A DNA stretch of 23,372 bases, taken from contig JBCCEA010000050.1 of the NCBI GenBank assembly GCA_039030515.1, positions 1 through 23,372 on the forward strand, given 5' to 3'. The notes beneath the pieces were generated by a model. The model ran no database searches, was not told where the DNA came from, and saw only the letters and a program-made list of their open reading frames with translations. This document shows, piece by piece, positions 5,465 through 18,162 of the stretch. This DNA comes from Myxococcota bacterium (lineage in GTDB: Bacteria > Myxococcota_A > Polyangia > Polyangiales > Houyiibacteriaceae). Every line of letters starts with the position of its first letter. Within the stretch, counting starts at the first letter, position 1. The position numbers and the translations under genes are program-made.

Positions 5465-5591
5465 CCACCACCAGGGATCGGCACCCGATTTGACGGGCCG
5501 TTCTTTCTTGGACGAAGGGCTATTTTTTATCGGATCGATGACAGATGCCTGCTTGTGTGTGTGGTCTGTGCCACTATTCTCTGAGGTCTAC

Positions 5592-6635
5592 ATGGGAATT
5601 GCGCTTGCGATACTCGGTCTTACGATCCTCGTGATCGTACACGAAAGTGGCCACTACCTCGTGGCGCGCGCTCTCGGTATGAGGGTCTTGCGATACAGCA
5701 TCGGGATCGGGCCTACGATATTCCGCTACCGGCCTAAGGGTAGCTCAACGGTGTTTCAACTCGCCGCGATTCCGTTTCTGGCCTACGTCCAAATCGCGGG
5801 CATGAATCCCCAAGAGGAGTTCGACCCCGAAGATCCAGAAGTGTTTCCCAACAAAAGCGTGTTTGCCCGCATCGCGGTCATCGCAGCTGGCCCCGCCGCC
5901 AACTACCTCTTCGCCTCACTGGTCTGTTTCGGCATGGTGCTTTACGCCGATCCCGGTTGGCCGATCGAGCCGGTCACCCCGGTTCAAGTCGGCGCCGTAA
6001 TGGACTCTACTCCCGCTGAAGAAGCGGGACTTCAACCGGGCGATGTCATCCTGCGAGCCAACGGTGAAACGGTGAGGGACTTCATGCACCTTATCGAGAT
6101 CACCGAACCACGAGCGGGGCAACCGACCGAATACGTAGTCAAGCGAGGTGGAGCCCTCGCGCCTCCCATCTTGATCACTCCGGCGGAGCGAGGTGATGGG
6201 GAGCGCAGTGTTGGCAGGATAGGAGTAGAGCCCCTGCGAGGCGCCACCTATTCGGGTTGGTCTGGCGCCGCTGAGGCCGCCTTGGTGCTTCCTATGCAGC
6301 TGACGGCGCTTCAGCTCGAGGGCATGGCCAATATGGTGCAGAGCGCGAACACCTCCGGACTGGTCGGACCCGTTGGAATGGTCAAACTCACCGCAAAGCA
6401 GGCGGAACAAGGAGCAGATCGGCTGGTCAACGTGCTGATGGTGCTTTCCGTGGCGCTCGGCTTATTCAATCTGCTGCCTATTCCTGCTCTCGATGGAGGC
6501 CGGTTGATGTTTCTGGCCTACGAGGTGGTGACCCGAAAGCCGCCCAACGAGCGATTCGAAGCGACAGTGCACACCATTGGGATTCTCGTGCTGCTTTGCG
6601 TGATCGCCCTCGTGACCTTTCGAGAGCTCGGCTAA
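5592..6635 (+). CDS. RseP-like site-2 intramembrane zinc metalloprotease (M50B) with one PDZ domain
   Basis: HESGH zinc motif in TM1, 'YSIGIGP', 'AAGPAANY', PDZ 'TPAEEAGLQPGDVI' and 'NLLPIPALDGG'. ATG at 5592 follows GAGG; the ORF-track start at 5490 is probably too long. Confidence 0.93.
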   Translation: MGIALAILGLTILVIVHESGHYLVARALGMRVLRYSIGIGPTIFRYRPKGSSTVFQLAAIPFLAYVQIAGMNPQEEFDPEDPEVFPNKSVFARIAVIAAGPAANYLFASLVCFGMVLYADPGWPIEPVTPVQVGAVMDSTPAEEAGLQPGDVILRANGETVRDFMHLIEITEPRAGQPTEYVVKRGGALAPPILITPAERGDGERSVGRIGVEPLRGATYSGWSGAAEAALVLPMQLTALQLEGMANMVQSANTSGLVGPVGMVKLTAKQAEQGADRLVNVLMVLSVALGLFNLLPIPALDGGRLMFLAYEVVTRKPPNERFEATVHTIGILVLLCVIALVTFRELG

Positions 6636-7557: not shown

Positions 7558-7751
7558 ACGCGATCGTCCGAGCGCCCGATGGAGTCATAGCTGAGCAGAG
7601 CTCTGCCGCACGCAGCTCGGGGGCCGATTGACGCCGCCTGGTATTGAGGCGACCATCAATGGGCATCTGGGGTCATGCGCGGAGGGTTCACCGCGTTGTT
7701 GGGGAACTCATCCGTTTGGGGCGTCACTGGTTTTCTGGAGGGGGAAATCCA

Positions 7752-10700
7752 ATGGGACAAAGGCGAAACTACCTTACCATCATTGGCCTTTTTCGGTACG
7801 CGGCCGCGATACTTGCCCTTCTGTGCACGCAGACCGTCACGGCGCAAACCGAGATTCGACCACGGTTTTTCATCGCGTTCGATACCTCTGGATCGATGGC
7901 GCTGGATCCCGACGGCGTCCCCAGCTTTGGAGACGGGGTTCCCGGAGTTACGGAGGGTCTCGACACCGACTGCGATGGAGAGGCCGACGACAGCCGGGTG
8001 TATATCGCCAAGGAGGCCTTGAGAAACGTGGTTCTCGCCTACGGCGAGCTCGAATTCGCCCTTGGTCGCTTTCCGCAGTACTCGGAAACCGAAATCATCT
8101 GCAACCGCGAGGCAGTACCGGGGAACTACCGAGGCAATCGGATTCAAGATATCGAATGTAGTGGCTTTTTGTCGAGCATCGGCAACCCTGCAAACAACAC
8201 CGGCACCGTACTGACCACGAGCAACTGCGGAGCCAACTGGAATGGATTCCCGGGAGTCGAGCTGCCGACCTCGGGCATACCCGCTGCGTGCCGTCCCAAC
8301 TCGATTCGCAGCGTAGACCCGAACACCGGTCCGCGAGTCTGCCTCAACTACCTGCCTGGGTGCCCGGGCTCCACCGAGTCGGTCAGTGGATACGTATTTC
8401 CGGAAGGGGATGTCCTTGTCGGATTTGAGGGTTTTGGATGGCCCGACACAACCGACAACCGAACCGGGATCCTGCGCTGGATCGACAATCAGGAAAGCAA
8501 CTTTGATCCGGACATCACCGAGGGCGACTTCTGCAACCACTCCGCAAACGGGGACTGCGAGCTCCGCGTAAGCGGCGCCACCCCACTTGCGGGAGTCCTC
8601 CGAGCGGCAGCGGACTACATGATCCCGATTCGGGCCGCAGACCCAGAACCTTGCAGGCCGTACACCGTACTGTTGCTCACGGATGGATTTGAGACCTGCG
8701 GTGACGATCCGGTCGCCGAAGCGGCCAATCTCTTCGCCAACAACATCGCGGTGTACGTCTTGGGCCTCGCCGTAGATACCGGCAGCCAGTCACTACTCAA
8801 CTCGATCGCGGCTTCGGGAGGCACCACGAGCGCGTTCTTTGCAAACGACCCTATCTCGCTAGCCGATGGGCTTGCAGACATCGTGCGAGATTCACTACTC
8901 ATCGAAGAATGCGGCGGGGGGGATGAGGACTGCGACGGCCTTGTGGATGAGGGGTTCGTCAAGTACTGCGACGTCCCGAACGGCATCACCACGCCGACTC
9001 TGTGCGATCCTGTAGATGAATCTGTTTGTGACGGAGGAGACGACAACTGCAATGGGCTTATCGACGAGGGCGTCACCAATGCATGTGGCGCTTGTGGCGT
9101 CGTACCTGCAGAAACATGCAACGGAAGCGATGACGACTGCGACCTTAGAATCGATGAAGGCGGCGTATGCACCAACTGCGCACGCGAACCGGAGATCTGC
9201 GACGGCCTCGACAACGACTGCGACAATTCAGTAGACGAATCCCTTTCGCGGTCCTGCGGGTTGAGTCTCGGCGTATGTACTCCCGGAACCCAGGCGTGCA
9301 CTGCGGGCGGCTGGGGTGACTGCGTCGGAGGCATCGTTCCCTCTGCGGAGAGTTGCGACGGACTCGACAACGACTGCAACGGTGCTGTCGACGACCTCAG
9401 CCGACCCTGCGGTAGTAGTACCGGCGAGTGTTCCCCAGGAACTCAGCAGTGCATCGGCAACGGGCTTTGGAGCGCGTGCCAGGGCGGGGTCGAAGAGCGT
9501 GATGAGGTCTGCGACAATCTCGACAACGATTGCGACGGGATCACGGACGAAGCGATCGCAGGCCTCGGAGCGAGCTGCGGCGTGGCCGTCGGCGACTGCG
9601 CTGCCGGCACCACCGCCTGCGTGCAGGGAACGGTGATCTGCGAAGGAGGATCGATCCCCTCGGGCGAACTCTGTGATGGCGAAGACAACGATTGCGATAG
9701 CCTGATAGATGAGGGTCTCGGCGTAGGCGCTCCGTGCGGTACCGACGTCGGGGAGTGTTCGCCCGGATTCCTCAGCTGCGTGGACGGCAGCTCGATCTGT
9801 ACGGGAGCGATCGAAAGCGTATCGGAAACGTGCGACGGGCTCGACAACGACTGCGACGGAGGCGTCGACGAAGGCTTGGGCCTTGGACAAATCTGTGGGG
9901 ACACCGTCGGTGTGTGTAGTCCGGGCACGCTTCGATGCGCGGACGGACAAGAGATATGCGATGGGGAGGTGCCGATCGGTTCTGAAGTCTGTGACTGTCA
10001 GGACAACGACTGCGACGGCAGCATCGACGAAGATGCGGAGGAGATATCTTTGTGCCCAGGCAGCTCTGCCTGCGTCAGCTGTCAATGCGCCCTACCGTGC
10101 GGCACCGGGGAGTTCGGTCTGAGCTGTCCCACCGGACGAGTGCCCTCTACCGAAAGCGGGCAATGCTACTGCATCGCCGATGCCTGCGATAACGAGTCAT
10201 GCGGCCAAGAAACCATCGACCTCGACGGTGAAACCCTGTGCGCGCCCGACTCTGACCTGGTGACAGCCTGCGTCTGCAAAAACAATGAGTGCACGTTCTC
10301 ATGTGACGGTGTGGTCTGCAGCAGCGGCACCGTCTGCAACTTTCGAGATCCGCTCGGCAGCTGTACCGAAGACAGCTGCCGGGGACTGGGCTGCCGTTCT
10401 ACCGAAATCTGCTCTTTTGAGACGGGCATTTGCGAGCCCGATCCGTGCCTAGACGCCTCGTGTGCTGCGGAGGAAGCCTGCCGGCTGGGGGCATGTGAGC
10501 CGAGCTGCGCCGATGCGAATTGCGCAGACGACGAGCGATGCGTACGCGGCGTATGCGTTGAAGATCGATGTGCGGATGTTTCGTGCACCTCCAGCGAGGT
10601 CTGCCTGCAAGATTCGGGCAGCTGCATCACGAATCCCTGCAGCGCGGTCCTGTGCCCCACCGGCACGCTGTGCAACCCGCAAAACGGAAATTGCGAGCAG

Positions 10701-13094
10701 GACCCGTGTGACTTGCTCCGCTGCCCAGCTGCTCAATCTTGTTTCGAAGGCGAATGCCGCTTCGACACGATGCCCTCAGAGCCTCCAGAGACCAAATCGG
10801 ACGAGGAGGATACGACCCCGAATCGGCGCGTTCTTGTCACCGGCGGAGGCGCTTCATGCGCTGCCTCGGGCGCCGCCCCACCGCACACCCTGCTAGCGCT
10901 CATGATGTTTGTTTTTGCGTCTCTTATGATGAGATCTCGCCGAATCTACGGCAAAGGTCGAAGACGTGCTTCGCTGATGCGACCGTTTCTCTTCATCATT
11001 GCAGTCTTGGCCCCGGTGACCGGCTGCGATGTCTCTCCCTTCTGTCTCGATTGCGATGAATCCGCAGAGCCGGCTCCGGACGGTTCGATTGTGGGGGCAA
11101 AAGATGCTTCAGGCGGCGATCCAGCCGACGCGACCGTCGGAGACGCTGGGACCATCGATAGTCCAGACGCATGTAGCCCGGATGGATCGGAAGAGTGCAA
11201 CAACTTCGACGACGACTGCGACGGGCGGGTCGATGAGGGGGTAGATACTCAAGCAGACCCAAATCATTGCGGAGGTTGCGGCATGCTGTGCGCGCCCCCC
11301 CAGGCATTTGGCATCTGCGATGAAGGCACGTGCACCATGGGCGACTGTGATGTCGGTTGGTTTGACCTCGACGGAGAGGAGTCCAACGGCTGCGAGTACC
11401 GATGCATTCCGTCTGCGGTAGACGACACGCTATGCGATCGCCGAGACAACGATTGCGATGGGGCGGTCGATGAAGACGTGCAGTTCGAGTCAGACCCGGA
11501 AAACTGCGGTGGTTGCGCCCAGAGATGCGCGTTCTCCCGCGCGGTCACAAGCTGCTCCAATAGCACCTGCCTACTCGAGACCTGCGAGGCCAACTTTTTC
11601 GACATCGACGAGATCAGCAGCAACGGGTGTGAGTACGCATGTGTTCCGGCGGACGGAGGCGCAGAGCTTTGCAACGCGGTCGACGACGATTGCGACGGGA
11701 CCATCGACGAGGGAAACCCCGAGGGCGGCACTGCCTGTGGCGAAACCACCGGTCGATGCGATGTGGGAATTGAGGTCTGCAGCGGCGGGAGCCTCGTATG
11801 CACCAACACGATCGGTCCCTTTGTGGAAACCTGCAACGGTAGCGACGATGACTGTGACGGGCTCACGGACGAGACTACGCTTTTTGATGTGGATCCACTT
11901 AATTGCGGCTTTTGTGGCAATACTTGTGACGCACCTCAAGCGATCAGCCAATGCATCACCGGCAACTGCGTGCTGGCTGGATGCATGCCGGGATTCGCAG
12001 ACATCACTTCCGAACCTGGATGTGAAACCGCATGCGTCAATGCCGGCAGCGAAGTGTGTAATGGCGCAGACGATGACTGCGACGGGACCATCGACGAGCA
12101 ACTCACCATGCCCTCCAACTTTTGCCTGAACTTTGGAGTCTGCGTGGGCACCCAACCGGTATGCACCGGTACCGGCGGCTGGTCCTGCAGCTACCCGTCA
12201 ACGTTTCAAGATCCAGAAACGGTGTGTGACGGTATCGACAACGACTGCGACAGCCTGAGCGACGAAGGCTTTTCGGTCGGTGAGCCTTGCGGCGTAGGGA
12301 CGGGCAGCTGCCGCGTCACTGGGCTCACGCAGTGCGCAAGCGATGGAGCCGGTACCGAGTGCTCCGTCCAAACGCCGGGAGACCCCGTCGATGAACGGTG
12401 CAACGGCGAGGACGACGACTGCGATGGAGCGGTGGACGAGGGCGTCGATCCGGCAAATATCGACACGGTGCGCCTCTCGATCGCCGGCGCCACGGTGGAC
12501 GTCTTCCAGTTTGAAGCCTCAAGGGCCGATGCCACCTCGAGTGAAGCTGGGATTCTATCGACCGCCGCATGTTCGGTTGCCGATCGAATTCCCTGGACCT
12601 CGGTCACTTGGTCTGAAGCGGAAGAAGCCTGTTGCGCCCTGAACGATGGCGGCCAATGCCCAGCCACCAGCACGACCGACGGCTGGAGACTCTGTGATGT
12701 TGACGACTGGGAAGCAGCGTGCGCAGGGCCTTCTTCGAACTGCACGTGGTCGTACGAAAACAACTGCACATCAAGCGCAAGTCTCACCTGCAACGGGACC
12801 GAGTTTGACTGTGATCCGGGGGCGTCCGGAGTTCAAAACTGCATCAGCCCAACGCAAAACAGCACTTCGTTCGCAAGCTGTCGTACGAGCTGGCCTGCTG
12901 GACCGATCTACGATTTGTCCGGCAATGTCAAAGAATGGACCAACACGGAGGTTGCGCCGGACGTCCACGCCATCCGCGGAGGATCGTACAACAACCTGGA
13001 GGAGGGTCGCACGTGTGCATTCGACTTCACTGTAGGTGATGAAACATTCCGTTTTCCAAACGTAGGCTTTCGTTGCTGCTACTACGATTTCTGA
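7752..13094 (+). CDS. Giant cell-surface protein: signal peptide, VWA domain, Asp/Cys-rich (MopE-related putative metal-binding) repeats, Cys-rich region, internal MYXO-CTERM-like anchor, internal lipoprotein-like signal, further repeats, C-terminal FGE-sulfatase/SUMF1 (CLec-fold) domain
   Basis: ATG at 7752 follows GGAGGGGG. Signal peptide ends ...TVTA-Q. MIDAS residues DTSGS / ATPL / LLTDG. About 16 'CxxxDxDCDGxxDE'-type repeats (9 before the anchor, 7 after). 'GGGASC-AASG..hydrophobic..RSRR', then 'MRPFLFIIAVLAPVTG-C', and C-terminal 'YDLSGNVKEW..RGGSY..VGFRCC'. Confidence 0.88.
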   Translation: MGQRRNYLTIIGLFRYAAAILALLCTQTVTAQTEIRPRFFIAFDTSGSMALDPDGVPSFGDGVPGVTEGLDTDCDGEADDSRVYIAKEALRNVVLAYGELEFALGRFPQYSETEIICNREAVPGNYRGNRIQDIECSGFLSSIGNPANNTGTVLTTSNCGANWNGFPGVELPTSGIPAACRPNSIRSVDPNTGPRVCLNYLPGCPGSTESVSGYVFPEGDVLVGFEGFGWPDTTDNRTGILRWIDNQESNFDPDITEGDFCNHSANGDCELRVSGATPLAGVLRAAADYMIPIRAADPEPCRPYTVLLLTDGFETCGDDPVAEAANLFANNIAVYVLGLAVDTGSQSLLNSIAASGGTTSAFFANDPISLADGLADIVRDSLLIEECGGGDEDCDGLVDEGFVKYCDVPNGITTPTLCDPVDESVCDGGDDNCNGLIDEGVTNACGACGVVPAETCNGSDDDCDLRIDEGGVCTNCAREPEICDGLDNDCDNSVDESLSRSCGLSLGVCTPGTQACTAGGWGDCVGGIVPSAESCDGLDNDCNGAVDDLSRPCGSSTGECSPGTQQCIGNGLWSACQGGVEERDEVCDNLDNDCDGITDEAIAGLGASCGVAVGDCAAGTTACVQGTVICEGGSIPSGELCDGEDNDCDSLIDEGLGVGAPCGTDVGECSPGFLSCVDGSSICTGAIESVSETCDGLDNDCDGGVDEGLGLGQICGDTVGVCSPGTLRCADGQEICDGEVPIGSEVCDCQDNDCDGSIDEDAEEISLCPGSSACVSCQCALPCGTGEFGLSCPTGRVPSTESGQCYCIADACDNESCGQETIDLDGETLCAPDSDLVTACVCKNNECTFSCDGVVCSSGTVCNFRDPLGSCTEDSCRGLGCRSTEICSFETGICEPDPCLDASCAAEEACRLGACEPSCADANCADDERCVRGVCVEDRCADVSCTSSEVCLQDSGSCITNPCSAVLCPTGTLCNPQNGNCEQDPCDLLRCPAAQSCFEGECRFDTMPSEPPETKSDEEDTTPNRRVLVTGGGASCAASGAAPPHTLLALMMFVFASLMMRSRRIYGKGRRRASLMRPFLFIIAVLAPVTGCDVSPFCLDCDESAEPAPDGSIVGAKDASGGDPADATVGDAGTIDSPDACSPDGSEECNNFDDDCDGRVDEGVDTQADPNHCGGCGMLCAPPQAFGICDEGTCTMGDCDVGWFDLDGEESNGCEYRCIPSAVDDTLCDRRDNDCDGAVDEDVQFESDPENCGGCAQRCAFSRAVTSCSNSTCLLETCEANFFDIDEISSNGCEYACVPADGGAELCNAVDDDCDGTIDEGNPEGGTACGETTGRCDVGIEVCSGGSLVCTNTIGPFVETCNGSDDDCDGLTDETTLFDVDPLNCGFCGNTCDAPQAISQCITGNCVLAGCMPGFADITSEPGCETACVNAGSEVCNGADDDCDGTIDEQLTMPSNFCLNFGVCVGTQPVCTGTGGWSCSYPSTFQDPETVCDGIDNDCDSLSDEGFSVGEPCGVGTGSCRVTGLTQCASDGAGTECSVQTPGDPVDERCNGEDDDCDGAVDEGVDPANIDTVRLSIAGATVDVFQFEASRADATSSEAGILSTAACSVADRIPWTSVTWSEAEEACCALNDGGQCPATSTTDGWRLCDVDDWEAACAGPSSNCTWSYENNCTSSASLTCNGTEFDCDPGASGVQNCISPTQNSTSFASCRTSWPAGPIYDLSGNVKEWTNTEVAPDVHAIRGGSYNNLEEGRTCAFDFTVGDETFRFPNVGFRCCYYDF

Positions 13095-13124
13095 GCGACC
13101 TGCAAAACTGATACACTCCTTTGG

Positions 13125-14267
13125 GTGATCGAGTCATCCTCAACTCCGGTGGGACAGTTGGACCGATTCCAATTGATCCAGCGAATCGGGGTCGGAGGCA
13201 TGGGAGAGATCTATTTGGCCGAGGTCTTGACCGGTGCGTACGAGGGCGGACGCGTTGCGATCAAATGCATGCTTCCGGAGGCATCAAACGACCCGGTTTT
13301 TGTCGGGATGTTTCTCGACGAGGCTCGCCTGGTGACCCGGTTGCAATGTGATCAACTCTGTCGAGTATACGAGCGTGGATTTGCAGACGGCCGTTACTAC
13401 CTGGCCATGGAGTACGTCGAGGGCACCACACTGCGGCAGCTGCTAAGTCGTCATAAAGACGGTTTGTCTCCCAGAATATCCGCTTACATCCTGGCAGAGA
13501 TAGGTCGCGGGCTCGACTATGCACATCGATTTCGGGATATGGCGGGCATTCCGGAGGGGATCGTCCACCGCGACGTAAACCCCAGCAACATCATGGTGGG
13601 CGCAGATGGGGCCGTGAAGCTCATCGACTTTGGCCTCGCAAAATCGAGGACTCAACTGCAAAAGACGCTACCTGGATTGGTCAAAGGCAAATTTGGCTAT
13701 CTGGCTCCGGAACAACTCTCTGGAACCATCGATCATCGAACGGACATTTTCGCCATGGGACTTAACCTCTATGAGTGTCTGACGGGTCGACGTGTCTTTC
13801 ATCAAACGAATCCGGCAGAGGTGGTGTTCGCCGTGGCCGAGTTCAGCGAAATAAACTCGCTCAGTGCACAAAGATCAGATGTTCCAGCGGAGCTCGATGC
13901 CGTATGTAGACGGCTGCTGGCTAGAAATCCTGAGGACCGATTCCAATCTGCCGCAGAGGTCACCTCGATTCTTGAAAAACTCCTCTACTCGTGGGGAGCG
14001 ACCACTGCGAGCGTGCGAGCCGAACTCGCTGCGGCGGTCGATCCAGAGGCCGGAGCAGATCTCAGTTCAGCCGATTGGAGGGTCGAGCCTGCGACTGAGG
14101 CGGTAGAGCTCTCAACCGACGAGCATCCCTCCGATACGTCTCTCGATACGTGCGATATTGAAGCTTCACCTGAACGCCGAGGTCTAAGGAATAGGACCAT
14201 AATCTGGACCGCATTGATATTGATGCTGTGTGCAGCGGCAATAGCCTCCTGGTCTAGAAGTGGATAA
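13125..14267 (+). CDS. Hanks-type Ser/Thr protein kinase with a C-terminal transmembrane helix
   Basis: IGVGGMGEIY, VAIK, HRDVNPSN, DFG, GKFGYLAPEQ and DIFAMG motifs; C-terminal TIIWTALILMLCAAAIASW. Confidence 0.95.
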   Translation: MIESSSTPVGQLDRFQLIQRIGVGGMGEIYLAEVLTGAYEGGRVAIKCMLPEASNDPVFVGMFLDEARLVTRLQCDQLCRVYERGFADGRYYLAMEYVEGTTLRQLLSRHKDGLSPRISAYILAEIGRGLDYAHRFRDMAGIPEGIVHRDVNPSNIMVGADGAVKLIDFGLAKSRTQLQKTLPGLVKGKFGYLAPEQLSGTIDHRTDIFAMGLNLYECLTGRRVFHQTNPAEVVFAVAEFSEINSLSAQRSDVPAELDAVCRRLLARNPEDRFQSAAEVTSILEKLLYSWGATTASVRAELAAAVDPEAGADLSSADWRVEPATEAVELSTDEHPSDTSLDTCDIEASPERRGLRNRTIIWTALILMLCAAAIASWSRSG

Positions 14268-14276
14268 ACTTGGGTT

Positions 14277-16802
14277 GTGGACGAGGAATTAGAGTCGGTT
14301 CGACCGGAGTCGGTTCGATCGCGGCCGTCGGCATTGGAGAAACAACTCCACTACGCTCTGCTGATTCTGCTCAGGCATACGCGAGGAGCACGCAAAACCA
14401 ACAAGGCCTGGGTTGATCCGCTCATCGATGATCTCCACCAGGCACTGACCGCCATTCTGGAAGAGCATGGGGTGATTCACCTCCGAGTCGGAGTCGACGG
14501 ATTTTCCCACGGGCCGCATAAGGTCCTCGACTATTCACCCCGAGATGATGCCAAGCTGTTCTCTCTCTTCCAATACGGGGTGAGGCAGCTTTCCTTTCTA
14601 CCGGGCCTCAGAACAGAAGAGCTGCACGGACTGATCGAAGTGCTCAATACCGATCTCACCGCGCTCGCATTCCAAGAGGAGGACATCACCACGCTCCTTC
14701 TCTCGAAAGACCTGTCATGCGTTGAATTCGTGGTCGTCGAGACTTTTTCTGAGAGTGAGAGTTCCAAGCGAAGGGGAAGCTCCAGAGCCGAAGACATTGC
14801 GAAAGTCGTTGCCGATGCATTGAGCCAAAGCATTGATCCGGACCGAGCCGGAGCCGGTTCGTTCACGTTCTGGAAAGCCGACGTCACCTTCTTCAAAGAG
14901 CAGGACGTCGCAGAGCTGATCGCCACCCTGCCAAACGTCACCGGAACCCACGAAGCAAAAACCGATGCGTTTGCACCCTTACGGGAAGAAATGGACCGCA
15001 GGTTCGGTTCGACCGCCCAGGAACTCCCACGTTCGACCATCGAAGCCGTCAGAGGTACTTCGGACGAAGTGACCGCCCGCCTCGCCGGGGTGCTTGGGGG
15101 CGAGTGGCTGCGCTACGTTGCCGGTCACGGCCTCGATTCTATTGCAATAGGCGTGCAAGAGATCATCTCCTGGCTCGAAGAGAGAAGAAAGGGAAGCACA
15201 CGAACCAGATGGGTTGCTGAGCAGGCATTTAACTCAAAGCTCCAACGATTGGCGCTGCGCACCCTCGATCAGTCGAAGCGCGGCATCCAAGGGGAGCGGG
15301 GCGAGCTTGCAACCAAAGTGGCACTCGCCATGATCGCTTGGACCTCTGCCAACGATGTGCCGGGAGCTTTTCACACCATCCTCAGACAGGGCGAAGGATT
15401 GCGCAGAGAGGACGCCCTTGCCGCTCTAATGTCCACCGGCCACGCGTTCGAAGTATCTTCCAAGAAGCTCCTCGAGTGTGACGAGGTAGCAGCGCTTGCC
15501 ATCTTGCAGGCCGTTCGAAATGAGAGCGCAAGTCCCGGGACCGTTCAGCTGTTCGGTGTGGCGAGAACCCACCCTTCGCTCAAGGTTCGAGTGCAGGCGC
15601 TTTCTTGGTTCGCCTACCACGGAGGTCCCCACGCGGTACGTGTTCTCGGCGAGGCGCTCAGAGACATCAGCCCCGAGGTGAGAACGACCAGTCTATGTCT
15701 CGTCACCCGGACCCAAAGCAAGAATGCAGCAGCTTTGGTGAAAGTATGGATCGAAAGCGAGGAATTTGAGCGGCTCGAATACGAAGAAAAGCGTTTGGCC
15801 TGGCTACTTATGGCAAAGCTCTACGGAGACCACGGTCTTGCGTACTTTCGCGAAGTCGCAAGTCACCGAAATCTGATGCGAAGAGCAAAACTAGACGAGC
15901 GCAGAGCAGCAGCGGTCGCGGCCCTTGGCTTCCTGGTCGACACGGAGTCTTTCGACAGTATCGAGCAGGCGGGCGCAAGCCGAAGTTCAGGTGCGGTTCT
16001 GCGCGACGAAGCCCATCACGTGATCGAGTCTCTGAGGCAGGGCGATCATCCTTACCCTGATCCGGTGGAGACCCTCGAGGGGATGGCCAGCGCCCTCGAC
16101 CTCTCTTCTCATTTGATTTCGGGCTCGAATGTGCTGCCGGAGATTTCCCTACCCACCTTTACCAATGCGCCTACCACCGCGCGATCTCGAACGAGTTCAG
16201 TCCGAGCCCCCGCATGGGCAGTCACGAGTAGCTTTGGCGTGTTTGGTTCGGAGCCGGAGCAGGTCTTCTCACTTCCTGTTCCGGACGATTTGCCCCCGTC
16301 GAGCGACGAACCCAGCACCCCTCGACAACCCAGTGCCCCTCGACAACCCAGCACCCCTCGACCAAGCCAGTCAACTTCGGTGAGTCACCCGCTTCCGAGA
16401 GCTGTCTCTGCTCCCCCAGAGCGGCTCTCGCGTCCACCTGTCTCTACCCCGCCAACGCGGCTCTCTCGTCCACCCGTCTCTACTCCCCCAGAGCGGTTCG
16501 CCAAACCTCCCGTCGAGTTCCATGAAGCCACCTCTGGACGCTTTGGGGACTCTGGAGGAGACGACCTCGAGCGAACTAGGAGCTTGAGGCGTTCCATCGC
16601 ACCCGAGGCAGATGTGCGGTCTTCCGAGGAAGCCATCGATCCCGCTCTCGATTCGTTGGAAGCGTTTGTGAACGATATTGAAACGACCGCAGAGGCCACC
16701 CGTTCCCGTTCTGACGAAGCCCGATCGGACACTGCAGATCTTCTCTCGATGTTCTCTTTTGATTCTCTGAGTTCCCATCCTCGAGAGGACGAAGATGCAT
16801 GA
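14277..16802 (+). CDS. HEAT-repeat protein with a Pro/Ser-rich disordered C-terminal region
   Basis: HEAT-like units 'HPSLKVRVQALSW', 'ALRDISPEVRTTSL' and 'RAAAVAALG'. N-terminal 'LFQYGVRQLSFLPGL..EEL' resembles the N-terminal region of the downstream gene ('MGVHEISF'). Confidence 0.75.
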   Translation: MDEELESVRPESVRSRPSALEKQLHYALLILLRHTRGARKTNKAWVDPLIDDLHQALTAILEEHGVIHLRVGVDGFSHGPHKVLDYSPRDDAKLFSLFQYGVRQLSFLPGLRTEELHGLIEVLNTDLTALAFQEEDITTLLLSKDLSCVEFVVVETFSESESSKRRGSSRAEDIAKVVADALSQSIDPDRAGAGSFTFWKADVTFFKEQDVAELIATLPNVTGTHEAKTDAFAPLREEMDRRFGSTAQELPRSTIEAVRGTSDEVTARLAGVLGGEWLRYVAGHGLDSIAIGVQEIISWLEERRKGSTRTRWVAEQAFNSKLQRLALRTLDQSKRGIQGERGELATKVALAMIAWTSANDVPGAFHTILRQGEGLRREDALAALMSTGHAFEVSSKKLLECDEVAALAILQAVRNESASPGTVQLFGVARTHPSLKVRVQALSWFAYHGGPHAVRVLGEALRDISPEVRTTSLCLVTRTQSKNAAALVKVWIESEEFERLEYEEKRLAWLLMAKLYGDHGLAYFREVASHRNLMRRAKLDERRAAAVAALGFLVDTESFDSIEQAGASRSSGAVLRDEAHHVIESLRQGDHPYPDPVETLEGMASALDLSSHLISGSNVLPEISLPTFTNAPTTARSRTSSVRAPAWAVTSSFGVFGSEPEQVFSLPVPDDLPPSSDEPSTPRQPSAPRQPSTPRPSQSTSVSHPLPRAVSAPPERLSRPPVSTPPTRLSRPPVSTPPERFAKPPVEFHEATSGRFGDSGGDDLERTRSLRRSIAPEADVRSSEEAIDPALDSLEAFVNDIETTAEATRSRSDEARSDTADLLSMFSFDSLSSHPREDEDA
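16311..16364 (+). repeat. 3 x 18-bp tandem repeat (PSTPRQ/PSAPRQ/PSTPRP)
   Basis: CCCAGCACCCCTCGACAA, CCCAGTGCCCCTCGACAA, CCCAGCACCCCTCGACCA. Confidence 0.93.
16404..16511 (+). repeat. 3 x 36-bp degenerate tandem repeat (VSxPPxRLSRPP)
   Basis: VSAPPERLSRPP / VSTPPTRLSRPP / VSTPPERFAKPP; each unit starts GTCTCT. Confidence 0.88.
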
Positions 16803-18162
16803 TCTAGGCCCCATCGATCAAAACGAGGAAACCCTATTTCAGCACCTGGCCGAGGAGCTTTTGCTGCGACTCTTCGTCCTGGTGAAGTTGGCGCTTGTAC
16901 ACCGAATGGACAACAAAGCCGTCACACCGGCGCTGCAGAGGTTCCGAGAAGCGCTGACCACCTATCAAAAGGAGATCGAGGGAGATGTTGCAGTGCAAAT
17001 GGTCGATGACGCCGTGTACATCAACTACCGTCTGGTGCGCGCAAGTCTAGATACGTACGAGCGAGCTAGTTTTCTCAAGGTGTTCTTCTCCCGCATGGGA
17101 GTTCATGAGATCAGTTTTATCTCCAAGGTGGAAGACAAAGCACTGCGTGATTTCCTGCAGGCCGTCCGTGCGGTCTCGCTCGATGCAGATGAAGCCGACA
17201 AGGTTCGCGCACGCAAGTTCAAGGGCATCCAATTTCGCGAGCTTAAGGCCATGGGAATTGGAGCCCAGGAAGCCATGGTGCTTCCCAACCGGATTCGGGT
17301 CATTCGCGCCTACGGCGTGCTGGTGATCACGATACGTGAGCTCTTGGCGGCGCTTGCAAACCAAGAGCAGATTCGACTGCTGGCCTTTCGACGCGCGATA
17401 CAGGACCTCGCCCGCCTGCCTGAAGAAACGAAACCACTGCAGCTCGGCCTGCTCAGTCTTGAGCACTATCACGGCAAAGCCGAAAGCCGCCTTGCGAATG
17501 TCGCTCTGCTCGCGATGATGATGGGGCGCCGGCTTCAGCTTCTGCCGTCAAAGCTCAGAGACCTTGGCACCGCAGCGGCACTGGGCCTTATCGGTAGGGC
17601 CGTGCGCCCAGAATTTCTTTTTGCATCAGCAGAAGAGGTTGCTCAGGCAGACGCGTTCTTAAAGGGCATTCGCCAAATTGCACCCTATTTTGGCCAAGGC
17701 CGAGCAGTATCGCTACGCATCGTCGTCGCTGCCGATCAACAAACCGCGGAAGGACGTCGCAACGGACACCCAGTCTCTCGAATCGCGGCGGTCGCCGATC
17801 GATACGATATCTGGACCCAACCCGAGCCTTTTGGACTGGGCCTCCGACCAGATATGGCGCTGCATCGCCTGCTGGAAACCCGGGACCTTGATCCAACCGC
17901 CACCAAGTTGCTGGTTCAAACCTTGGGACTCTTCCCGGTAGGGTCCACGGTCAAGCTCTCAAGCGGTCACACCGCGATTGTCGTCGATACAAGCTCCAAT
18001 CCAGAATACCTCGCCTCTCCAAAGGTCATGATCATAGCGGACGACGCTGGAAACCCCTGTCAGCGCCAATCACTCGATCTCGCCACATCGGAGGTGCAGA
18101 TTCTCGGCACCGTCGAAGCAAAATCGGTGAATCTGAACGTAGGTCACTTTCTCTTCTCTTGA
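16795..18162 (+). CDS. HD-GYP-like protein, apparently degenerate (no HD dyad, no GYP)
   Basis: 'NVALLAMMMGRRL...DLGTAAALGLIG', 'SRIAAVADRYD' and C-terminal 'LGLFPVGSTVKLSSGHTAIVV...P' match the HD-GYP scaffold. Overlaps the HEAT gene by 8 nt (ATGCATGA). Confidence 0.8.
   Translation: MHDLGPIDQNEETLFQHLAEELLLRLFVLVKLALVHRMDNKAVTPALQRFREALTTYQKEIEGDVAVQMVDDAVYINYRLVRASLDTYERASFLKVFFSRMGVHEISFISKVEDKALRDFLQAVRAVSLDADEADKVRARKFKGIQFRELKAMGIGAQEAMVLPNRIRVIRAYGVLVITIRELLAALANQEQIRLLAFRRAIQDLARLPEETKPLQLGLLSLEHYHGKAESRLANVALLAMMMGRRLQLLPSKLRDLGTAAALGLIGRAVRPEFLFASAEEVAQADAFLKGIRQIAPYFGQGRAVSLRIVVAADQQTAEGRRNGHPVSRIAAVADRYDIWTQPEPFGLGLRPDMALHRLLETRDLDPTATKLLVQTLGLFPVGSTVKLSSGHTAIVVDTSSNPEYLASPKVMIIADDAGNPCQRQSLDLATSEVQILGTVEAKSVNLNVGHFLFS

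Follow-up and report, generated by a model that had tools for sequence, protein, structure and literature searches.

The 23,372 nucleotide stretch analysed here ('the window') spans positions 1 to 23,372 of the forward strand of contig JBCCEA010000050.1, from a Myxococcota bacterium (GenBank assembly GCA_039030515.1; its genome is denoted G000 below). It contains a single stop-free frame at positions 7644–13094, identified from the list of open reading frames (ORFs) and its translation, in which a sorting tag of the MYXO-CTERM type and a lipoprotein-type export signal stand one behind the other in the middle of the encoded protein. The probable start is an ATG with a Shine-Dalgarno (SD) sequence, GGAGGGGG, located 7–14 bases 5′ of it. 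The resulting 1780-residue protein is already on record, where it clusters with two fragments from other contigs. Its first half ('A') comprises a signal peptide, a VWA domain with a full metal ion-dependent adhesion site (MIDAS), PF11617 repeats and a Cys-rich region, while its second half ('B') comprises PF11617 repeats followed by an FGE-sulfatase domain (Table 1). The N-terminal export signal, as judged by hydropathy, has a basic start and hydrophobic residues at positions 10–24 (Kyte-Doolittle value (KD) 2.17) ahead of a TVTA|Q site. The membrane-proximal region of A is common to all paralogue types and is 56% identical among 10 orthologues. The ORF, the domain profiles and the homologues described below bear out the architecture proposed in the initial annotation, that of a VWA protein and an FGE lipoprotein fused in one ORF.

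Read in order, the junction consists of TGGGASC, AASGAAPP, a first transmembrane helix (TM1, HTLLALMMFVFASLMM), the basic sequence RSRR IYGKGRRRASL, the ATG at 10977, a second helix (TM2, RPFLFIIAVLAPVTG) and the Cys codon at 11025. The succession of tag Cys, helix, Arg-rich loop, helix and Cys, with no stop, is as the initial annotation had read it. The tag Cys, the first of the two, is residue 1036 (codon 10857) and lies 58% of the way along the protein; the second, residue 1092, follows a signal of lipoprotein type (VTG|Cys1092). When Cys is given a value of 0, the three most hydrophobic 15-residue segments of the whole protein are TM1 (KD 2.31, the highest), the N-terminal signal and TM2 (KD 2.15).

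The upstream part of the junction contains the Gly-rich signature with Cys, the TM helix and the Arg cluster of a MYXO-CTERM signal (TGGGASC / TLLALMMFVFASLMM / RSRR), located internally, with 750 residues between the motif and the stop codon. When scored against TIGR03901, as the initial annotation had advised, the tag was matched but remained under the 20-bit cut-off of the family (19.0 and 16.5 bits in two scans). The downstream part contains an n-region (RRRASLMR), an h-region (PFLFIIAVLAP) and a V-T-G-C lipobox with Cys at +1; this signal is likewise internal, and the ATG at its head has no SD. V-T-G-C fits the loose lipobox pattern [LVI][ASTVIG][GAS]C. It fails the strict form, L-[AS]-[GA]-C, given in the available text of PMC9360617. 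Judged from these motifs, the protein falls outside strict membership of either class, yet would appear to work like both. A weak match to NCBIfam NF058595 ('lipo-invert putative C-terminal anchoring domain'; 16 bits, cut-off 37) covers positions 10863–11030; no description of that family was found in the papers searched.

Table 1. Features of the fused gene, in window coordinates.
Feature	Position	Strand	Basis
Shine-Dalgarno of fused gene, GGAGGGGG	7737..7744	+	sequence
Fused ORF, 1780 aa, 183.9 kDa precursor	7752..13094	+	ORF list, translation
Probable N-terminal Sec signal peptide, predicted cut TVTA|Q after residue 31	7752..7844	+	sequence and hydropathy
VWA head of half A, complete MIDAS	7845..8906	+	weak Pfam VWA match, fold model, conserved MIDAS columns
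Stalk of half A, Cys/Asp repeats PF11617	8907..10061	+	profile match
Membrane-proximal Cys-rich region of half A (EGF-like, label by eye) and acidic/Pro linker	10062..10832	+	sequence
MYXO-CTERM signature LVTGGGASC	10833..10859	+	TIGR03901 match just under cut-off; sequence
TM1, stop-transfer helix of MYXO-CTERM	10887..10931	+	hydropathy
Arg/Lys-rich cytoplasmic loop (MYXO-CTERM tail and n-region of second signal)	10932..10976	+	sequence
TM2 / h-region ending in lipobox V-T-G; starts at ATG 10977	10977..11024	+	hydropathy, sequence
Cys1092, proposed to become diacylglyceryl-Cys at the start of mature B, with the conserved CDVxPFCxDC motif	11025..11054	+	sequence comparison
Linker and Cys/Asp-repeat stalk of half B, PF11617	11055..12461	+	profile match
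FGE-sulfatase / CLec-fold head of half B	12462..13091	+	PF03781 E 1.8e-10; weak fold matches; complex model

The joint is real and conserved. An assembly error or recent loss of a stop codon that joined two ordinary genes might be suspected, since the genome is a metagenome-assembled genome and two of the fetched homologues look mis-assembled or frameshifted: in L136 the joint is disrupted by frameshifts, and L165 is a 3.9-kb contig, probably chimeric, in which an apparent ABC permease membrane region (identified by eye) is joined to half B. Against this, contigs of four out of four marine metagenome runs, all from one study, cover the loop with 0 gaps; these were contigs rather than raw reads. 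One of them (X1) may be the source of the window sequence and another (X3, 10898–11868) is identical to it, while X2 (10500–11929) represents another allele with 12 substitutions, all listed, of which the sole one at the junction is synonymous. X4 (10704–11501) has 23 substitutions, a part of which were shown. No RNA data set containing the sequence was listed, which is uninformative on expression. Furthermore, in all of the best 20 non-self matches the joint is likewise present and in frame. Where close matches are named records, these are titled Polyangiales, Myxococcales, Deltaproteobacteria or uncultured bacterium. The initial annotation had said that its proposal would fail if there were an indel or stop at the junction, or if all close relatives encoded two separate ORFs and expressed no fused product, and neither test refuted it. 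With the joint conserved across 13 family codes, we reject an artefact as barely credible.

The wider distribution of the joint was assessed in 61 genomes (G000 and 60 relatives), in which a search with half B at E 1e-40 gave 145 rows from 39 genomes. Sixty stretches were picked from those rows, long frames being favoured; 49 are fused, nine split, one frameshifted and one apparently chimeric. Pooled with other loci, they yield 74 distinct junction sequences, 55 fused and 19 split (the fused loci L146 and L163 lie outside this count), a ratio that should not be read as a population frequency given the preference for long frames. Of the 61 genomes, 30 have fused joints, which span 13 family codes and number up to four per genome, often beside a split paralogue. 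Across a sample of the phylum, the junction region was matched in 7 of 251 genomes at E 1e-25, all of the same class (one junction query, at most six candidates scored per genome); the remainder are genomes in which that query found no match.

The split pairs are overlapping genes that carry the same two signals, with an ATGA or GTGA stop-start overlap in 18 of 19 and a start with an SD in 17 of 19. Among the fused joints, by contrast, 50 of 55 lack an ATG between TM1 and the second h-region, 28 lack any ATG, GTG or TTG and only three have a start with an SD. Given the absence of a start codon from those 28, half B must be made as part of the long product in no less than half of the fused joints. 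These counts bear on a suggestion of the initial annotation, that the ATG at 10977 could act as an internal in-frame start. If half B were translated mainly from that codon, with read-through being incidental, its position 16 codons before the Cys would fit a start, and one homologue (L110) does have a comparable ATG with an SD. The ATG at 10977 has no SD at normal spacing, however, most fused joints contain no start codon, and half A would still bear half B as an extension. An internal start that lacks an SD and is not conserved among fused homologues seems very improbable, and was rejected.

The sequences of the joints are informative about what is being maintained. Hydrophobicity of TM1 and of TM2 is equal in fused and split joints (p = 0.56 each), and the loop has a net charge of +2 to +13 in all 55 fused joints, in agreement with the hairpin topology that the initial annotation deduced from the positive-inside rule. 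The signature Cys is present in 55 of 55 fused joints, although that count, like the one for the −1 residue given below, is partly circular because the profiles were seeded on the Cys motifs. The loose lipobox consensus is matched by 17 of 55 fused and 6 of 19 split joints. In the window protein and nine close orthologues, the hairpin varies from 50 to 94 residues and is only 33% identical, whereas identity reaches 66% and 76% in the two Cys motifs and 56% and 60% in the domains on either side, a contrast that a disposable signal would produce. Counted over 30 residues beginning with the second Cys, Cys residues are odd in number in 73 of 74 joints, which leaves one of them free.

Fused and split states are intermingled in the history of the family. 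On trees built from regions outside the joint (71 and 49 rows), the fused/split label needs five changes, all five of which are forced by starred branches in the 49-row tree, and a single clade of fused genes is rejected by an approximately unbiased (AU) test (p = 0.0007; 27 versus 15 rows). These trees come from unrooted quick searches, so the direction of change (fusion versus fission) is not fixed by them. Six or seven split pairs form a clade inside well-supported fused groups, which suggests re-splitting; taken together, the sequences indicate that fusion was probably gained or undone several times. G000 itself contains a split paralogue pair on contig C58 (minus strand, ∼8761–13800; stalks of 400/301 residues), consisting of a VWA protein that ends in a MYXO-CTERM followed by a lipoprotein with an FGE head, and the closest relative of this pair in the tree (L166) is fused.

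The joint is also found with other domains. The VWA/FGE heads are missing in 16 fused and 3 split loci that have the joint, and a second head pair, DUF4114 in A and a BNR propeller in B, occurs in both fused and split form (five fused genes and one split pair were scanned). The loci assigned to this second type, six of which were scanned, are L147–L162, L010, L013 and L164. Among the best 30 of 65 TIGR03901 matches in genome G011, four are internal, all above the cut-off (33.9, 26.9, 23.6 and 21.5 bits) and each followed by a second helix and G-C. One of the four belongs to another protein family (L172, contig C1 ∼6549962, minus strand) and displays the same hairpin design, its internal MYXO-CTERM being followed by a long loop, a further helix and LAIAG|C. 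At L034:1-10994, two half-A-like frames lie in tandem in the same frame, with one stop codon between them, 5′ of one half-B gene, and L024:966-15149 encodes a 4727-residue fused member with stalks of 1757/1682 residues and ∼500 residues beyond its FGE domain.

The two stalks change length in concert. In 49 of 76 pairs, those with both heads (27 others, truncated or of DUF4114/BNR type, were omitted), the stalk lengths of A and B correlate with r = 0.98 and a slope of 0.95; with independent contrasts the values are 0.987 and 0.97, and 18 of 19 large contrasts point in the same direction. Matched classes of ∼400/303, 650/490, 763/600, 872/712, 1250/1086 and 1757/1682 residues are observed. The repeat arrays are separated by a conserved region, so that a single duplication could not extend the two of them; a C-anchored and an N-anchored subunit meeting at their tips would have to change length together. 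Within the main clade, fused and split members share the same offset between stalks (∼150–175 residues), implying that both forms build the same object.

The head of A contains DTSGS at 7881, T at 8580 and D at 8682, corresponding to what we take to be the MIDAS motif (DxSxS, T, D), in columns that are at least 90% conserved (23 rows). Its Pfam VWA match is under the cut-off (18.4 versus 23.8); a model of the domain (predicted local distance difference test (pLDDT) 72) has a Rossmann VWA fold and matches other VWA folds (best E 1.9e-7). A model of the FGE head of B (pLDDT 60) gave no fold match at E 0.001, with weaker ones to CarF, PvdO, PorK and TvpA, and a sequence search of the PDB returned no match at E 0.001 for either head. 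When the VWA (390 residues) and FGE/C-type lectin (CLec; 210 residues) heads were modelled as a complex from 23-row alignments, the pair scored 0.81, against 0.00 for the best of three controls, with runs that agree in at least 62% of contacts and a partner pLDDT of at least 89. Of 157 solved complexes, 116 reach the pass mark used, as do 2 of 215 mismatched pairs; these counts hold only roughly given that our own alignments were used. The predicted interface involves residues 175–200 of B (the C-terminal pocket region) and residues 62–69, 202–211 and 341–352 of A, off the MIDAS residues. The model supports a head-to-head association of the VWA and FGE/CLec heads and, together with the stalk co-variation, backs the 1:1 stoichiometry that the initial annotation had argued for.

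The same pocket region is hypervariable in proteins of diversity-generating retroelements (DGRs). In the 23 homologues, the pocket residues of B are nearly invariant, and no template repeat was matched (no non-self blastn match at E under 0.96 in G000, which is 85% complete); a DGR variable protein was therefore rejected.

The processing enzymes invoked by the initial annotation are encoded in G000: a myxosortase core (Mrt_core NF040914, 111.8 bits, cut-off 100) on contig C23, and, over their cut-offs, two Lgt proteins and one LspA as well as GspD. The genome also contains four terminal TIGR03901 matches in addition to the C58 paralogue, and among 46 rough N-terminal lipoprotein candidates Ala at −3 is as frequent as Leu (14 each). 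According to the available text of Guo, Haft and Wall (mBio 2025, PMC11980579), the myxosortase MrtX cleaves MYXO-CTERM in a Cys-dependent manner, in E. coli too, and lipidation before cleavage, possibly by Lgt, and export via the type II secretion system (T2SS) have been proposed.

We consider it probable that two lipid-anchored subunits are cut from the precursor and form an adhesin heterodimer clasped at the heads. One ribosome would start at 7752, and Sec would export half A behind the N-terminal signal peptide until TM1 stops transfer; by the positive-inside rule, the Arg-rich loop should stay cytoplasmic and TM2 should act as an internal signal that restarts export for half B. By comparison with the split homologues and with the processing described in the available text of PMC11980579, Cys1036 would be lipidated and cut after by myxosortase, and Cys1092 would be lipidated by Lgt and cut before by LspA. 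The predicted products are A (∼1005 residues, 103 kDa), with a C-terminal anchor, and B (689 residues, 71 kDa), with an N-terminal one, and the 55-residue hairpin would be discarded after both cuts. The co-variation of their lengths suggests antiparallel repeat stalks rising side by side, and in the complex model the CLec pocket of B clasps the alpha1/alpha7 face of the VWA domain of A, an arrangement that would leave the MIDAS free for an outside ligand in a presumed adhesive role. The folded pair may reach the surface via the T2SS, by analogy with TraA. Fusion would then replace ATGA translational coupling as a route to 1:1 subunits at one translocon.

A broader interpretation, which we advance tentatively as one that could well hold, is that this is a widespread bacterial polyprotein design in which myxosortase, at an internal tag, and Lgt/LspA, at an internal lipobox, serve as two lipid-anchoring pathways for one translation product and yield an integrin-like two-legged adhesin with length-matched stalks. 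Its legs might be repeat rulers that set the height of the adhesin above the cell, its CLec head would hold, and perhaps control, the VWA MIDAS, and interchangeable head pairs (VWA/CLec and DUF4114/BNR) would sit on the same chassis.

Several observations weigh against cleavage into two lipidated subunits, or lessen the force of the evidence cited for it. The tag scores under its family cut-off and lacks the usual second Cys, and just 6 of the 55 fused joints and 3 of the 19 split ones match the strict L-[AS]-[GA]-C pattern, which leaves room for signal peptidase I. An uncut chain would account just as well for the stalk co-variation and the head-to-head model; the stalk offset is not shared by three distant split pairs (L012, L014 and L048), and the omission of 27 pairs narrows that comparison. 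The complex test is often passed by the two halves of a split gene, and conservation at the interface is barely higher than elsewhere on the VWA side (0.65 versus 0.60; 0.78 versus 0.65 on the FGE side). The favouring of long frames, the seeding of profiles on Cys motifs and the quickness of the tree searches count on the same side.

The principal competing explanation is a single chain, either uncut or cut once, in which the hairpin stays as a two-helix anchor (perhaps with a lipidated Cys) and the heads are still clasped. It is compatible with all of the fusion, topology, complex and stalk data. No paper was found in which LspA acts on an internal lipobox, and uncleaved MYXO-CTERM proteins partly reach the surface (PMC11980579, available text). 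We nevertheless regard it as unlikely: both Cys motifs are much better kept than the hairpin between them, split and fused forms interconvert with their geometry unchanged, stalks of 650–1750 residues would be hard to fit in the periplasm under an inner-membrane hairpin, and sorting tags are, going by the titles of work cited in PMC11980579 and described below, processed mid-protein. Alternatively, there may be two products of which the second is cut by signal peptidase I, leaving B without a lipid and held by nothing but its binding to A. This would suit the −1 residue, which is Gly, Ala or Ser in 74 of 74 joints, the frequent Ala, Ser, Thr, Val or Gly at −3, and the fact that the loose lipobox pattern is fitted by less than a third of fused joints. 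The Cys at +1 and the odd Cys parity argue otherwise, as does the persistence of the +1 Cys alone where the CxxC is lost (L007, L024 and L003); split forms are equally loose in consensus, and Ala is no rarer than Leu at −3 in the lipoprotein candidates of G000. We believe this alternative to be improbable.

Integrins have two legs with joined heads, each subunit with a TM helix and tail, and pair a VWA domain with a beta-propeller. Here VWA pairs with FGE/CLec, and the BNR propeller with DUF4114; there is no homology to integrin alpha, the stalks would be antiparallel and no cytoplasmic tails would be left after processing, so that the comparison is an analogy only. The FbcH cytochrome b-c1 precursor of Bradyrhizobium japonicum (1989) reportedly provides two complex subunits from one gene, separated at an internal signal; that case is said to involve one signal-peptidase cut and a respiratory inner-membrane complex, whereas two lipid-anchoring pathways would act on one chain here. 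Sorting tags can also reportedly be processed mid-protein, by other enzymes, to judge from the titles of studies by Abdul Halim in 2017 (a Haloferax ArtA substrate with a non-terminal tripartite tag) and Navarre in 1994 (internal LPXTG constructs); we know of no second export signal behind the tag in either. CglB and CglD of Myxococcus xanthus resemble half A in having a MIDAS VWA head, a Cys-rich stalk and a cell-surface location and, in the available descriptions, are single lipoproteins.

An internal MYXO-CTERM has been published for one protein, MXAN_5598 of M. xanthus, a precedent that the initial annotation overlooked. Like the protein described here, MXAN_5598 has the tag between an adhesin region and a second exported module. 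The available text of PMC11980579 ascribes it to fusion of two overlapping genes and proposes processing. It differs in that its second module is a C-terminal outer membrane beta-barrel with OmpA (TraB-like) rather than a lipoprotein, and no internal lipobox is mentioned in that text; its junction may contain a second signal. MXAN_5598 is presented there as a rare single case, whereas the joint described here is the majority state in the closest relatives, is reversible and occurs in up to four paralogues per genome. TraA and TraB, with MrtX and the T2SS (available text of PMC11980579 and bioRxiv 10.1101/2023.06.07.544157), share the Cys-rich stalked surface protein, the Gly-rich Cys motif, the TM helix and the Arg cluster, and a partner from an overlapping gene, as in our split form. 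In the present protein, by contrast, the tag is internal, a stalked lipoprotein takes the place of the barrel as partner, and the head is VWA rather than that of TraA. In a literature search that left most subscription journals outside, we found no paper on an internal lipobox or a tag-plus-lipobox hairpin.

Little in the surroundings of the gene is shared with its homologues: in the short flanks fetched, no neighbour gene is conserved except for kinases at four loci. Two genes upstream in the window (5490–6635) lies an RseP-like intramembrane protease (HExGH, PDZ-like; identified by eye), which was not found beside homologues in those short flanks. RseP-type enzymes degrade signal peptides, and this one could clear the hairpin. 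Downstream on the same strand (13125–18162) are a Ser/Thr kinase, a HEAT-repeat protein and an HD-like protein, the start of which overlaps the stop of the gene before it. Short in-frame tandem repeats were noted in otherwise ordinary genes: at the start of a GlmU-like protein (2104–2200, PGSSQK three times in tandem), in the HEAT protein (16300–16520, Pro/Ser-rich) and in an oxidoreductase-like ORF (∼22630, DSSPVK doubled).

If the proposed processing is correct, Lgt and LspA act on a lipobox that is preceded by a thousand residues of the chain, and these proteins would be natural exceptions to the rule that lipoprotein signals are N-terminal, missed by annotation tools. Because one substrate presents two Cys of opposite topology, the fused genes would also be a built-in test of which enzyme lipidates the MYXO-CTERM Cys, a question posed in the available text of PMC11980579, with dozens of natural fused and split pairs as controls. 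The design suggests a portable means by which a single gene could display two anchored proteins together at 1:1. For the myxobacteria examined here, stalks matched in length and heads that would clasp one another point to a so far undescribed family of surface adhesins with two legs, of which a genome has several copies.

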